This document shows, piece by piece, positions 10,089 to 15,598 of a stretch of DNA of 32,000 nucleotides. The translations under genes and the position numbers were made by a program. Location: positions 98,506 through 130,505 of the forward strand of contig CANQYI010000002.1 in assembly GCA_947628005.1 (NCBI GenBank). The letters run 5' to 3'. The stretch is from an uncultured Clostridia bacterium. GTDB taxonomy: Bacteria > Bacillota > Clostridia > TANB77 > CAG-465. The notes below the pieces were generated by a model. It did not search any database, was not told the DNA's origin, and saw only the letters and a list, made by a program, of their open reading frames with translations. Numbering within the stretch: the stretch's first letter is position 1; the number at the start of each line of letters is the position of its first letter.

Positions 10089-10130
10089 AAAGACTAAATT
10101 AAGAACACATCTTAATTTAGTCTTTATTTT
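10089..10130. terminator. bidirectional rho-independent terminator between the cbpA-like and dnaC-like genes
   Basis: A 15-bp perfect stem AAAGACTAAATTAAG (10089-10103) / CTTAATTTAGTCTTT (10111-10125) with a 7-nt loop and T-rich tails on both strands. Confidence 0.75.
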
Positions 10131-11148
10131 AACTTAATTTTTTCTTTTTAAGTCTTATATCATCGCCCACAAATTTACATATAATAAAGTTTCCAATCAA
10201 TCTTGACATTACTCTTTCATCATATTCTTTATATAGTTCATTAAGAGTTAAATTTGTTGATATAACTATTTTTTTCTTATTTAAAATTCTAGTATTTATA
10301 ACATTAAATAATTCCGTAAATTTTAAGTTATTCATACTTTCAGTGCCTAAATCATCAATTATTAATAAATCTACATCAAATATTTTTTTATAATCTGATA
10401 CGTCTTCTTTATCTTTCTTTTGTGAAAATTTGTATTCTACTATCTTGTCCATCAAAATAGGAGCTGTCTGATAAACAACTGATTTATTCTGCTTTATTAA
10501 CTTCCCAGCTATACAATTTGCAAGGAAGGTTTTTCCTAGGCCTGTATTTCCTGTAAACAATAAATTTTTTTGTTCATCAGAATCTATATTTTCGCAAAAC
10601 TTAATAGATAAATTTTTTATTGCTTCTATATTTTCTAAAGGAGATTTATCTATCCCATACTTTTCTTTATCTGGTTTCTTAGAATAATATCCTATATCAA
10701 AAGTTTCAAAATTTTCTTCATCTAATCTTAACATATTAGCTTCATTATAGCTTTCATTTATTACTTTTTGTAAAATACATGAACAATATTTTGCATTTGA
10801 ATTTTCATCCTTTACAAATCCTGTATCTTGACATTTTGAACATTCAAATTTTGGTAAAAAATCTTCCTTTTTATAGCCATCTTTCTTTAACTGGTTTTCT
10901 AATTTTTCAGTTAAATTTTTTATTTTCATATTCAAATTTTCTTGTTCAATTTGTTTCTTTATTTCATCTGTAGTAGTAAGTATTGTTTTAGTCGTATTTA
11001 GTGCTAACATATTTATTTGGTCTTCTAATTCTTGAAGTCTTGGATCTTGCTCAAAAGCTTTTTCTTTTTTTTCTTTTGCTATTCTTATCGCCCTTTGCCT
11101 TTTAGCATCCATCTCACTTTTTATTTTCAAATATATATCTCTATCCAT
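10129..11148 (-). CDS. replicative helicase loader, DnaC/DnaI family AAA+ ATPase
   Basis: 339 aa. The Cys cluster is CSKCQDTGF...YCSC, Walker A is LLFTGNTGLGKTFLANCIA, Walker B is LLIIDDLGTE, and further motifs are ISTNL and SRL. A GGAGGTG RBS lies 17 nt after the upstream stop. Confidence 0.85.
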   Translation of the reverse strand: MDRDIYLKIKSEMDAKRQRAIRIAKEKKEKAFEQDPRLQELEDQINMLALNTTKTILTTTDEIKKQIEQENLNMKIKNLTEKLENQLKKDGYKKEDFLPKFECSKCQDTGFVKDENSNAKYCSCILQKVINESYNEANMLRLDEENFETFDIGYYSKKPDKEKYGIDKSPLENIEAIKNLSIKFCENIDSDEQKNLLFTGNTGLGKTFLANCIAGKLIKQNKSVVYQTAPILMDKIVEYKFSQKKDKEDVSDYKKIFDVDLLIIDDLGTESMNNLKFTELFNVINTRILNKKKIVISTNLTLNELYKEYDERVMSRLIGNFIICKFVGDDIRLKKKKLS

Positions 11149-11165
11149 GTCAGCACACCTCCATT

Positions 11166-12116
11166 TTAAACATTATCGTAAAATGACTCTAAATCATCGT
11201 ATGTCCTTTGTCCATAATTTTGATATTTAGTTTTTGGAACTTGTTTATCTTTAGAAACATTGGCTACTCTTTTTTGTTCATTTTGAACATCTTCAACAGT
11301 TTTATAACCTTTTTTATGCCAATTTGTTAAAATACCATTAACATAATTTATAGTTGGATTATAGCTATTAACTGTTTTCTTTAGTGCTTCTTCTATAATA
11401 GAAATATCATATCCAAAATCTTTTATCCAAGTATCTACATATTGTTCTTCATATGTAGTTAAATTTCTATTAAGTTTTAAGTTTTTTACAATCTTTTGCT
11501 TTATTTTTTGAATTTTATCATAATTTTCAAAGTATTCTTCTAATTGTTCAAAAGTTCTAACACCGGCTTTATACCAGCTTTCAGCTACTGCATGTACATA
11601 CTTTTTACTAAGTGCTTTCTTTTCTTGACAGTAATGAAATAAGGCAATCATAACTTCCTCAGAAAACATATAATTTTCAAACATAGTACCAATATCAGAA
11701 TACCATCCAATAGACATTATGCCTTGGAAAAAACTCTCATTAATTGCATAAGCTGCTGCTATTCTTTTCTTTTCTTGTTCAGTCTGTTCTTTATTTTGTT
11801 TATTTTGCATTTTAGGAATATAAGATTTATTTATTTCTAACTCTTTTATATCTACTATGCTAAATCCATGAGTATTTTTCAAAATTAGTCCTTCGCCTTG
11901 TAGTCTATCTAGACTTAACTCCAAATCTTGTTCAGACATACTTAATCTCTTCATAAGTATTTGATTATCTATCTCTAAATCTCTTTTAGATGCAAAAATT
12001 AAATATAAATATAACTTTACATCATTGCCTTCTAAAGATCCCATGTGATTTAATATAAACAAATCTGGTATTTCTATATCACTTAATTCTAATTTACTTT
12101 TCTGAGAAACTTTCAT
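11166..12116 (-). CDS. DnaD-domain replication initiation protein (B. subtilis DnaB-type architecture)
   Basis: 316 aa. An N-terminal winged-helix-like region is followed by two DnaD-type C-terminal repeats, each with a YxxxxxxxW motif: YVHAVAESWYKAGVRT and YVNGILTNWHKKGYKT. Confidence 0.8.
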   Translation of the reverse strand: MKVSQKSKLELSDIEIPDLFILNHMGSLEGNDVKLYLYLIFASKRDLEIDNQILMKRLSMSEQDLELSLDRLQGEGLILKNTHGFSIVDIKELEINKSYIPKMQNKQNKEQTEQEKKRIAAAYAINESFFQGIMSIGWYSDIGTMFENYMFSEEVMIALFHYCQEKKALSKKYVHAVAESWYKAGVRTFEQLEEYFENYDKIQKIKQKIVKNLKLNRNLTTYEEQYVDTWIKDFGYDISIIEEALKKTVNSYNPTINYVNGILTNWHKKGYKTVEDVQNEQKRVANVSKDKQVPKTKYQNYGQRTYDDLESFYDNV

Positions 12117-13659: not shown

Positions 13660-15487
13660 AATCTTCCTCCTCCCATCGATTAATTTTAACCTTTTTATAT
13701 ACATCAATGCTATTTCCATCAGATATTAAGCATAGGCTTTCAAACGTATTTAATTTTTGTGTTAAGTAACTTTCGTCAATCATATACTCCTGTCTTTCAG
13801 TAATAGTATAATTTTGTGATAATGATGTCTTAAAACTTTTAAATTTATTTGAAAACATGCTATATCTTGCTCTTCCACCTCCTTCTCCAACACTTACAGA
13901 TTTACTTTTCTTTATTTGCTTTCCAAATAATTTAATTACCTCTTGTATTGTATATGTATCATCATTTCTAAAGTAAATTTTATTAACTAGATTTTGTATA
14001 ATAACATTACTTGCTTTTTCATTTTTTAGGGTATTTATAAGAGAACTATAACTTTGCATACTTACTATGTTTATGCATTTATATTCTCTTGAAATTGAAA
14101 AAAAGTGAGAATCTTCTTCATTAGCAAATTCTTGATATTCATCGCAAATAAAGAATACCTCTTTACTAGAATAATTAGAAAGGACTTGTCTTTGAAAATC
14201 TAATTTTAAATATGTAGAAAGAATCTTAGCAATTTTTTTATTGCTACCAAAATCTATAGATAAAACTACTATTTTATCTGATAAAAAATTTATATTTTCT
14301 CTACTAGTACAAAATTTTTCATATATTTTATAATCTGATACAAATACACTAGTTATTCTTGTAATTTCAGATCTTATTATATTAATCGTTCTATCATCTA
14401 GCTTATAATATTCATTAATTATTGTTTGTAATGAAGAATTTATATTAAATAATTCTTCATCAGTATATTTATTTTCTAATATTTTTGATTTTAATCTTGC
14501 AATTTTTTCATCCAAATATTCCTTATCAATTACCATATTATGAATTTCATAAAAAGTAACATAGCCATCAACTGCTTTAGCAATAATAATAAAATCTTTA
14601 ACATATTCCTCTACCTTATCAAGCCAAAACGGATCTGAATTATTATTTGAAGATATTAAGGTTAATACTTTTTTTAGGACACTTGCCATTTCTACAGCAG
14701 ATATATCTTGTCCTAAAGGATTATATTTTGCATTTGATAAAAGAGATATTTCAATTAATTTATTTTCACAATGATACTTTTTAATAACCTTTTTAACAGT
14801 ATTTATATAATTTCCCTTTACGTCTATTATAAGTCCAAAAATATTGTTTCTTATCAAACAATCTAATATATTAGTTATTGCACTACTTGTCTTTCCGCTT
14901 CCTATACTTCCTGTAATAAGAATATTTTGAAAGGCACCTGACTTGTTTATAAAAACTTGTCTATTTAGTTCGTCTTTTCCAAGTAAAATAAATTCTTCTT
15001 TAACATTTGTACCTGTATTATTTTTATTTTTGAGCATCTTAAAATATTTTGAGATTTTTAAAATTAAAAAGAAAATAAAATAAAAAGATAATAAGTAGTA
15101 AAATATTTTAAAATAAATATATTTATTTGATAAAATTGTAGATATTAAAATTTGTTTATTAAATATTTGAATATAATAAAAATTAGAAACTAAAAATTTA
15201 TAAGTTAAAGCTAATTTGATAGAAGTTAAGCTCATAGATACAAGTATTAATAATAAATAATACTTGTATTCTGTTTTAGATGATTTTATAATTTTTTTAA
15301 ACAGATTAATGAAAGAATTTTTATTTTTTTGCTCTTCAAAGTTGCACGTCATACTTTGCAGATTATTATTGATATATTTTTTTAGTTTTGTGCCTAAACT
15401 AGATAATATAAAATTTTTATCTAACAGATCATATGACGTATAAAGAAAAAATACAATAAGAAAAAAATATTCTAGACAAAACAGCAT
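13649..15487 (-). CDS. membrane-anchored T4CP-class (TrwB/TraD/VirD4-like) P-loop ATPase
   Basis: About 612 aa counted from the ATG at 15487, which has an AGGTGA RBS; the ORF-track GTG at 15499 lies inside that RBS. The first ~165 aa are hydrophobic and Lys-rich, with several TM-like segments. Then come Walker A ILITGSIGSGKTSSA, KYNPLG, DPFWLDK, a long helical insert, Walker B FFICDEYQEFA, SREYKCINIVSMQSYSSL and an acidic C-terminus WEEEDYEE. Confidence 0.65.
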   Translation of the reverse strand: MLFCLEYFFLIVFFLYTSYDLLDKNFILSSLGTKLKKYINNNLQSMTCNFEEQKNKNSFINLFKKIIKSSKTEYKYYLLLILVSMSLTSIKLALTYKFLVSNFYYIQIFNKQILISTILSNKYIYFKIFYYLLSFYFIFFLILKISKYFKMLKNKNNTGTNVKEEFILLGKDELNRQVFINKSGAFQNILITGSIGSGKTSSAITNILDCLIRNNIFGLIIDVKGNYINTVKKVIKKYHCENKLIEISLLSNAKYNPLGQDISAVEMASVLKKVLTLISSNNNSDPFWLDKVEEYVKDFIIIAKAVDGYVTFYEIHNMVIDKEYLDEKIARLKSKILENKYTDEELFNINSSLQTIINEYYKLDDRTINIIRSEITRITSVFVSDYKIYEKFCTSRENINFLSDKIVVLSIDFGSNKKIAKILSTYLKLDFQRQVLSNYSSKEVFFICDEYQEFANEEDSHFFSISREYKCINIVSMQSYSSLINTLKNEKASNVIIQNLVNKIYFRNDDTYTIQEVIKLFGKQIKKSKSVSVGEGGGRARYSMFSNKFKSFKTSLSQNYTITERQEYMIDESYLTQKLNTFESLCLISDGNSIDVYKKVKINRWEEEDYEE

Positions 15488-15546
15488 TATAAAAATCACC
15501 TATAAATATTTTAGCACTATATAACTACCCAATCAAATACTTAGAC

Positions 15547-15598
15547 ATTATATTACAGCTTATGATAAAACTAGCAATTTTTTGACAATAAATATTGT
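15547..15598 (-). promoter_or_regulatory. candidate promoter/operator region of the ATPase operon
   Basis: There are two alternatives on the minus strand. One is TTGCTA (15577-15572) with either TAATAT (16-nt spacer) or TATAAT (19-nt spacer, 15552-15547). The other is TTGTCA (15588-15583). A 6-2-6 palindrome ACAATA-AA-TATTGT (15585-15598) overlaps the second -35. Confidence 0.3.

Follow-up and report, generated by a model that had tools for sequence, protein, structure and literature searches.

The conjugative type IV secretion systems (T4SSs) of monoderm bacteria, such as Prg/Pcf of pCF10, Con of ICEBs1 and Tcp of pCW3 (MPF-FATA/FA), include a VirD4-type ATPase together with VirB6/PrgH-type and VirB3/PrgI-type proteins, and a VirB2-like pilin is normally missing from the monoderm T4SS classes (PMC12102498). 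VirB4 is the one T4SS protein described as ubiquitous (PMC4027160). Here, we examined a block of six genes that lies in a 32,000 nt stretch of DNA from an uncultured Clostridia bacterium (contig CANQYI010000002.1 of assembly GCA_947628005.1; the whole stretch is called the window below), in which four T4SS-like genes directly precede a pair of genes for helicase loading of the DnaD and DnaC types. The module formed by the four genes resembles the monoderm conjugative systems in its VirD4-type ATPase and its putative VirB6-type and VirB3/PrgI-type proteins but differs from them in that no VirB4, relaxase, VirB8-like protein or cell-wall hydrolase was found at the locus, and in that it is chromosomal, vertically inherited and single-copy and includes a VirB2-like pilin.

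Two further groups of systems and two pairs of replication genes are also close. Chromosomal T4SSs of the Patescibacteria are likewise derivatives of the monoderm type found in uncultured hosts, without a relaxase and with VirB2-like pilins of the PF18895 model, and in some of these bacteria they lie near replication genes (dnaA), though they are built on VirB4 and TrsD and their type IV coupling protein (T4CP) is usually encoded elsewhere (PMC12102498). In the window, the motor is a T4CP, there is no VirB4 nearby, the host belongs to the Clostridia and the neighbour is a helicase loader instead of dnaA. The archaeal Ced/Ted DNA-import systems are also domesticated chromosomal derivatives of conjugation machines with an ATPase, a VirB6-like channel and a VirB2-like pilin, but their motor is VirB4/HerA-like and import was shown experimentally (PMC9905601), whereas the module described here is known from its genes alone. 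Finally, a protein with two DDBH2 repeats is encoded directly before an AAA+ loader in Bacillus subtilis (dnaB-dnaI) and in Clostridium difficile (CD3653-CD3654), as it is here, but the loader in the window belongs to the PRK06835 family and falls under the cut-offs for DnaI and Escherichia coli DnaC. The one neighbour documented for the C. difficile pair, CD3652, encodes an M1 peptidase and not a T4SS protein, and the likeness is one of type of pair. As C. difficile has a comparable pair beside an M1 peptidase gene, the T4SS-like module is lineage-specific and not a general requirement for helicase loading. No publication describing or linking the genes of this locus was found in the literature. 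A published 'conserved pilin' cluster of TANB77 was considered as the same locus and rejected, as it is a Tad pilus at a different locus.

The reading that we favour, and hold to be likely, is that the block consists of two adjacent units on the same strand, a domesticated T4SS remnant and a housekeeping loader operon, that have been inherited together since the ancestor of the lineage. The block is made up of six successive minus-strand genes from 15487 to 10129, and these genes and their predicted signals are as follows:

13649-15487, minus strand: VirD4-type coupling ATPase (T4CP), 612 aa, with N-terminal membrane helices
13333-13659, minus strand: VirB2-like T4SS pilin, 108 aa, with an 11-nt overlap with the T4CP stop
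12510-13331, minus strand: VirB6/TrbL-like polytopic membrane protein, 273 aa
12152-12505, minus strand: VirB3/PrgI-like small membrane protein, 117 aa
11166-12116, minus strand: DnaD/DnaB(Bsu)-type replication initiation and remodelling protein, 316 aa
10129-11148, minus strand: DnaC/DnaI-type AAA+ helicase loader, 339 aa
15581-15587, minus strand: putative Spo0A-box-like TGTCAAA, starting 51 nt upstream of the -35 of P1
15508-15536, minus strand: predicted promoter P1 of the T4SS-like module, TTGATT, 17 nt, TGCTAAAAT (extended -10)
12146-12174, minus strand: predicted promoter P2 of the dnaD/dnaC-type operon, TTGTAA, 17 nt, TGATATAAT (extended -10)
10089-10125, both strands: bidirectional intrinsic terminator at the end of the block (pattern scan, 16 pairs)

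Conservation and composition of the block

Narrow patterns derived from an alignment of the DnaD-like proteins were used to scan species-representative genomes, and 37 loci were recovered, the scan reaching only relatives at 48-78 % identity. With these family-specific patterns, there was exactly one locus in each of the 37 genomes. All 37 are metagenome-assembled genomes (MAGs) of uncultured Clostridia, for example Clostridium sp. CAG:465, CAG:1219 and CAG:921, bins which we take to belong to the GTDB order TANB77, though the literature did not confirm this. The four T4SS-like genes are found upstream of the pair in all 31 genome loci with enough upstream DNA. A metagenome scan using an alignment of the VirD4-like proteins produced 80 loci, 42 of them with at least 4 kb downstream, and in 41 of these 42 the six genes are present in order. 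The sole exception (locus L096) is a chimeric-looking contig that switches abruptly, from approximately position 4300, to G+C-rich genes of a different organism. Three VirD4-like homologues at ~50 % identity have the same six genes in context, and the deeper branches (L126-L129), which contribute three more loci, also carry the block. Identity to the proteins of the window ranges over 36-64 % for the VirD4-like protein, 48-78 % for the DnaD-like protein and 62-92 % for GyrA.

Because the other neighbours vary between clades, with gyrA even inverted, the module beside dnaD-dnaC, with gyrA nearby, is the conserved core of the region. As judged from this comparison, the block appears to date back to the ancestor of a deep lineage of gut Clostridia that are uncultured and low in G+C. 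An earlier reading of the window made without database searches (the sequence-only reading) had considered an insertion between the promoter and the essential genes, and had left room for a strain-specific insertion of the membrane genes. The first is at odds with both the apparent age of the block and its uniform composition, and the second with the synteny in the 31 genome loci and 41 metagenome loci.

The window has a G+C content of ~27 % and nearly every gene is on the minus strand. The sequence-only reading had noted that the upstream half of the block is far richer in A+T than the core genes, and its hand counts (4 G/C in 60 nt at 15061-15120 versus 22 in 60 nt at 8641-8700) are exact. 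This A+T richness is genuine, yet it does not indicate foreign DNA. G+C at third codon positions (GC3) is 0.11-0.16 in each gene tested, including gyrA, mutS and mutL, and a foreign composition of this half was ruled out by this uniformity; the lower G+C of the membrane genes stems from codon positions 1 and 2 and therefore reflects amino acid composition. The flanking genes in the window (mutS, mutL, miaA, rsmA, tdk and gyrA) are housekeeping genes, and dnaX, ybaB and recR lie outside it.

Identity of the six genes

The gene order given by the sequence-only reading, with a gap of 35 nt including AGAGGT (12127-12122) between the VirB3-like and dnaD-like genes and a gap of 17 nt between the dnaD-like and dnaC-like genes, proved exact. 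Its T4SS-like call is borne out by Pfam, orthologue and fold matches, and a T4SS origin of the four upstream genes is thus supported. The VirD4-like gene starts at ATG 15487 behind the ribosome-binding site (RBS) AGGTGA (15501-15496) and its product matches Pfam TrwB_AAD_bind (6.8e-10) and TraG-D_C (1.2e-8), both above cut-off. When the AlphaFold2 model (pLDDT 80) was compared with the PDB, the best folds were Cag-beta/VirD4 (1.7e-14), TrwB and DotL, with HerA and VirB4 ranking lower. The Walker A (GSIGSGKT) and Walker B (FFxCDEYQ) motifs are invariant or nearly so among relatives, and the family is small, with 83 representatives at E ≤1e-30 among 1.84 billion. The pilin-like gene, which starts at ATG 13659 preceded by GGAGGAGG, encodes a protein that matches Pfam T4SS_pilin (2.3e-7, 31.2 bits against a cut-off of 26.6) and TrbC/VirB2 (8e-5), and a 108-aa counterpart was called in two related loci (L004 and L005).

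The 273-aa protein of the window itself has no Pfam match, and 8 of 25 orthologues match TrbL/VirB6 (best 6.9e-6). The top five PDB matches to its model (pLDDT 82) are all TrwI/VirB6 of R388, though these matches are weak (E 0.014-0.06, probability 0.93-0.99, TM only ~0.3). The 117-aa protein matches Pfam VirB3 at 0.0024, which is under the cut-off, and among 27 orthologues seven match PrgI and three match VirB3, all weakly; the alignment includes a conserved N-terminal motif followed by two hydrophobic stretches. The assignment of this protein as VirB3/PrgI-like appears weak but consistent. When PDB sequences were searched with profiles of the VirD4-like and VirB6-like families, nothing useful emerged, and these proteins had to be compared by fold.

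Further T4SS components were also sought. None of the VirB4-type Pfam domains (CagE_TrbE_VirB, AAA_10 and DUF87) was detected in open reading frames (ORFs) of at least 100 aa in the 32-kb window, no VirB4 is present in the 10 kb past its left end (as represented by L123), and a VirB4-like protein from a sister clade gave no tblastn match in the window or in the near-clade loci. Relaxase and integrase domains were not found among the ORFs of the window.

The downstream pair looks like a housekeeping helicase-loading pair. The DnaD-like protein matches Pfam DnaB_2 (2e-31) in two stretches, corresponding to two DDBH2 repeats, and also TIGR01446; it includes the motifs YxxxVxxxW (YVHAVAESW) and YxxxIxxxW (YVNGILTNW), its first ~100 residues are conserved and its closest solved structure is DnaD (8ojj). 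The DnaC-like protein scores 328 bits with the NCBIfam equivalog PRK06835 (cut-off 215) and is under the cut-offs of the DnaI, DnaC and IstB models (DnaI PRK08939, 44 versus 228; DnaC PRK07952, 59 versus 357). It has a Walker A motif (GNTGLGKT), a Walker B motif (LLIIDDLG) and an N-terminal CxxC...CxC cluster (CSKCQDTG...CSC), and its closest solved structures are DnaC (6qel and 3ec2) and DnaI (2w58). Both the two-repeat DnaB(Bsu)-type architecture and the Cys cluster described in the sequence-only reading are therefore present, and its view of the pair as housekeeping rather than phage genes is supported, because of the PRK06835 match, the CD3653-type architecture, the conserved place by gyrA and the lack of a mobile element.

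In one subclade, the dnaC-like gene carries a conserved one-base insertion in the Walker A coding region (GGT TTA C GGT AAG ACT). It was found in ten loci (L084, L091, L092, L094, L105, L106, L109, L110, L112 and L127; e.g. L092 12640-12664), at an identical site across ten independent assemblies. In the zero frame, G-L-R is followed by a stop, immediately in nine of the ten and 12 codons later in L127, while the +1 frame restores G-L-G-K-T. This pattern suggests that a rare CGG codon serves as a site of programmed +1 frameshifting in an essential helicase loader. In the window, the dnaC-like gene is intact.

Predicted promoters, terminators and transcription units

Promoters and terminators were predicted using pattern scans of the sequence together with conservation among relatives. 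According to the sequence-only reading, the module and the loader genes appear to form a single transcription unit, and this is not supported, as an internal promoter, P2, is predicted directly before the dnaD-like gene. That reading had itself listed an internal promoter among the findings that would speak against it. P2 sits inside the end of the VirB3-like gene, and the TGA of its extended -10 is the stop codon of that gene. Of 38 unique upstream regions from relatives, 37 have a strict form of the pattern (TTGT[AC]A-N14-TGnTATAAT), located 25-42 nt ahead of the ATG. It occurs 42 times in the 1.42 Mb of 42 loci (37 of these from the unique upstream sequences, the others at positions that were not listed), and the pattern would thus be close to site-specific. 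Equivalent sites of the TTGAAT/TATAAT type precede dnaD in more distant loci. For the upstream unit, a P1-type promoter (TTGAnn-N-TGnTAnAAT) followed by the RBS AGGTGA is present in 23 of 31 unique related upstream regions.

Upstream of P1, the sequence TGTCAAA (15581-15587) has one mismatch to the Spo0A-box consensus TGTCGAA. Among the relatives, 31 unique upstream regions have the perfect TGTCGAA, for which the background rate is 0.019 per 320 nt, and it lies at -51 from the -35 of the VirD4-like promoter, or sometimes at -41 or -61, with a second box at -21 in some. No TGTCGAA box was found upstream of the VirD4-like promoter in a distant clade. The presence of the box in many relatives might reflect control by a Spo0A-like switch, the candidate regulator being inferred from the consensus alone.

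The pattern scan agrees with the sequence-only reading that no terminator lies between 15487 and 10129, as no minus-strand terminator-like site was detected in this interval, and the strong bidirectional hairpin it had reported at 10089-10125 was confirmed, with 16 bp instead of 15. Its statement that the only other strong hairpins lie outside the block overlooked one at 13482-13508 within the pilin-like gene, a perfect G+C-rich hairpin of 10-12 bp that is terminator-like on the antisense (+) strand only. A role for this hairpin as an internal attenuator was rejected as it is absent from the orthologues, and it is probably incidental. In the relatives, terminator-like hairpins were found in the gap between the two halves in 2 of 28 and after the dnaC-like gene in 20 of 38.

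Spacing also differs along the block. The gaps inside each unit range from -89 to +96 nt in relatives, most being overlaps or less than 25 nt, and the gap between the VirB3-like and dnaD genes usually exceeds all others (35-350 nt, or 0.7-2.8 kb with an insertion). In two deep branches (L126 and L129) 4.5 kb lies between the halves. In several relatives the inserted genes are unrelated to the block, and some are on the opposite strand. This spacer is a hotspot for small insertions (L009, L015, L018, L023, L028, L044 and L126), which include tandem pairs of small ORFs, a 190-aa ORF, a 188-aa membrane protein and a transposase fragment. Paralogous single-pass membrane proteins of 140-160 aa were also found there, and by eye they are like the product of a 147-aa ORF of the window (16025-16468) in size and in an N-terminal hydrophobic stretch.

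Hence, co-transcription of the halves is dispensable, since relatives carry insertions of 0.7-2.8 kb, some with opposite-strand genes, and read-through is plausible, since no terminator separates the halves here or in 26 of 28 relatives. Two adjacent same-strand units appear to be the best reading, with read-through from the first into the second probable but not required, and we predict that the loader operon is independently promoted and not reliant on read-through from upstream. Short gaps and missing terminators do not prove an operon, and it was the comparison of relatives that exposed a promoter hidden in a coding end.

The alternative is that all six genes form one operon in which the T4SS-like complex is coupled to helicase loading, for example by tethering or regulating the 'membrane attachment' step of the DnaD/DnaB-type protein. 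Adjacency and orientation that are kept across clades with differing flanks and even an inverted gyrA, the near absence of terminators between the halves and the gap of only 35 nt in the window would all fit such an arrangement, as would a sister clade with T4SS genes flanking dnaD-dnaC-gyrA on both sides. The conserved dedicated promoter directly before dnaD speaks against it, as do the tolerated insertions (0.7-2.8 kb, and 4.5 kb in L126), some of them with opposite-strand genes, and the C. difficile pair of the same type that adjoins an M1 peptidase gene. Overall, we consider a single coupled operon unlikely, and functional coupling of the module to replication 'membrane attachment' is speculation.

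Origin and possible role of the T4SS-like module

No mobile form of the module was detected. In tblastn searches with the VirD4-like protein, there was no match above 26 % identity in plasmids (72,556) and none in phage records (50,697), and a scan of IMG/VR gave no match. Repeats resembling att sites, including a repeat of the tRNA end, were not found bounding the block. A mobile-element origin was rejected on this absence from the plasmid, phage and IMG/VR collections and on the lack of att-like repeats. As no VirB4, relaxase or integrase lies nearby in the clade, the module is best described, on its gene content, as a domesticated chromosomal machine and not as a mobile element.

T4CP and DnaD/DnaC-type genes are, nevertheless, typical cargo of integrated conjugative elements (ICEs) and phages, and C. 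difficile CD2943 and CD0410 are copies of this kind. With three tRNA genes directly upstream of the block and the nearest outgroup T4CP in an ICE-like cluster, the block might be read as a fragment of an ICE or prophage beside the tRNA genes, with the DnaD/DnaC pair as its replication module. Its absence from the mobile-element collections, the lack of a repeated tRNA end and of an integrase, relaxase or VirB4 in the window, and the uniform GC3 all count against this, as do the fixed chromosomal place near gyrA in every relative, a loader above the PRK06835 cut-off and the single locus that the family-specific patterns recovered in each of 37 species genomes. We regard it as very improbable.

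That outgroup T4CP, the nearest outside the family (31 % identity), is in locus L125, where the gene order is SSB, M23 peptidase, T4SS_pilin-like, 258 aa, 121 aa and, last, a VirB4-like ATPase of 875 aa. The module of the window is collinear with this cluster, in which the VirB4-like gene then follows. A sister clade also has a VirB4-like ATPase gene (DUF87, AAA_10 and P-loop_TraG; L128 15565-17703 on the minus strand, and also L118, L127 and L065), which is accompanied by conserved 286-aa and 244-aa partners, upstream of gyrA and convergent on the dnaC-like gene, such that T4SS genes are present on both sides of dnaD-dnaC-gyrA. A counterpart of this gene was not found in the clade of the window. 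As the outgroup cluster and the sister clade keep a VirB4-like gene, the ancestral system was probably more complete, with VirB4 lost or moved in the clade of the window.

The missing VirB4, together with disrupted VirD4-like genes in two relatives, could also indicate that the T4SS-like genes are a decaying, functionless relic retained merely through their place upstream of essential genes. However, of the more than 70 diverged loci, nearly all have the four ORFs intact. The motifs of the ATPase do not vary, the tight, translationally coupled spacing is retained and the module is preceded by a conserved promoter and upstream box of its own. Over a divergence in which the proteins are 36-64 % identical to those of the window, neutral sequence would not have remained open, and a relic is, in our view, highly unlikely.

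In the model of two units, the first (15487-12152), transcribed from P1 (15536-15508), would be a translationally coupled four-gene remnant of a monoderm conjugative T4SS, encoding a membrane-anchored VirD4-type ATPase, a secreted VirB2-like pilin, a VirB6-like channel and a VirB3/PrgI-like subunit. A hexamer of the ATPase would dock on the VirB6/VirB3 membrane platform and drive a substrate, most likely DNA, over the membrane through or along a pilin conduit. The second unit (12116-10129), transcribed from P2 (12174-12146) and ending at the terminator at 10089-10125, would be a helicase-loading operon of dnaD/dnaB-type and dnaC/dnaI-type genes. Transcripts from P1 probably run on into dnaD-dnaC, giving a nested arrangement, because P2 overlaps the end of the VirB3-like gene without a terminator ahead of it.

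Several points weigh against this model. The VirB6 and VirB3 assignments rest on weak matches, and both promoters and the read-through are predictions from the sequence and its conservation. The search for VirB4 found none in ~42 kb of sequence here, nor in the 10 kb to each side of the locus in near-clade relatives, and the module may therefore not work as a secretion system, may depend on a VirB4 gene located elsewhere or may act outside transport. The searches covered the window and 10 kb on either side of the related loci, and a relaxase, a VirB4 at a distance or another dnaD/dnaC pair would lie beyond that reach. Internal stops interrupt the VirD4-like gene in two loci (L018 4821-6635 and L026 6615-8447), which represents either occasional decay or MAG assembly error. 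Of these disrupted genes, one includes a short frameshifted stretch and the other has TGA at a conserved Gly.

A more specific proposal is that a conjugation machine has here become a relaxase-less chromosomal apparatus for handling DNA, with a T4CP and not VirB4 as its motor, and is mechanistically tied to the replication genes that accompany it. As an example, the T4CP might receive single-stranded chromosomal DNA from the helicase loaded by DnaD/DnaC, and this DNA could then be exported or exchanged. We think it doubtful that the module works in this way. If it does move chromosomal DNA, this would bear on gene exchange in abundant uncultured gut Clostridia, and a link to replication would make it an initiation accessory of a new kind. 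Domesticated conjugation machines have so far been documented in archaea (Ced/Ted) and proposed in Patescibacteria, and this locus would be the third case. Its make-up is unusual in the coupling-protein motor, the VirB2-like pilin in a monoderm, the lack of a VirB4 nearby and the stable place by a loader operon and gyrA.

The window includes a second, canonical T4CP gene (707-2671, minus strand), the product of which matches Pfam T4SS-DNA_transf (4e-80) and the NCBIfam equivalog conju_CD1115 (424 bits). No further T4SS genes surround it. Near-clade relatives have a syntenic counterpart (43-74 % identity), preceded by gyrA, a gene with a VanW domain and a conserved gene of 173 aa, and in L123 a 228-aa gene comes next, ahead of dnaX, ybaB and recR. 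Because it is syntenic in relatives and without neighbouring T4SS genes, it is an orphan chromosomal T4CP among replication genes, outside any ICE.

The only known RNA elements found in 9000-17500 are tRNAs. The three tRNA genes upstream of the block form a tRNA-Lys/Glu/Thr cluster (15700-15937, plus strand) with its own TTGACA-17-TATCAT promoter (15651-15679, plus strand). The cluster is divergent from the T4SS-like module, and a regulatory region of ~200 nt is common to both.

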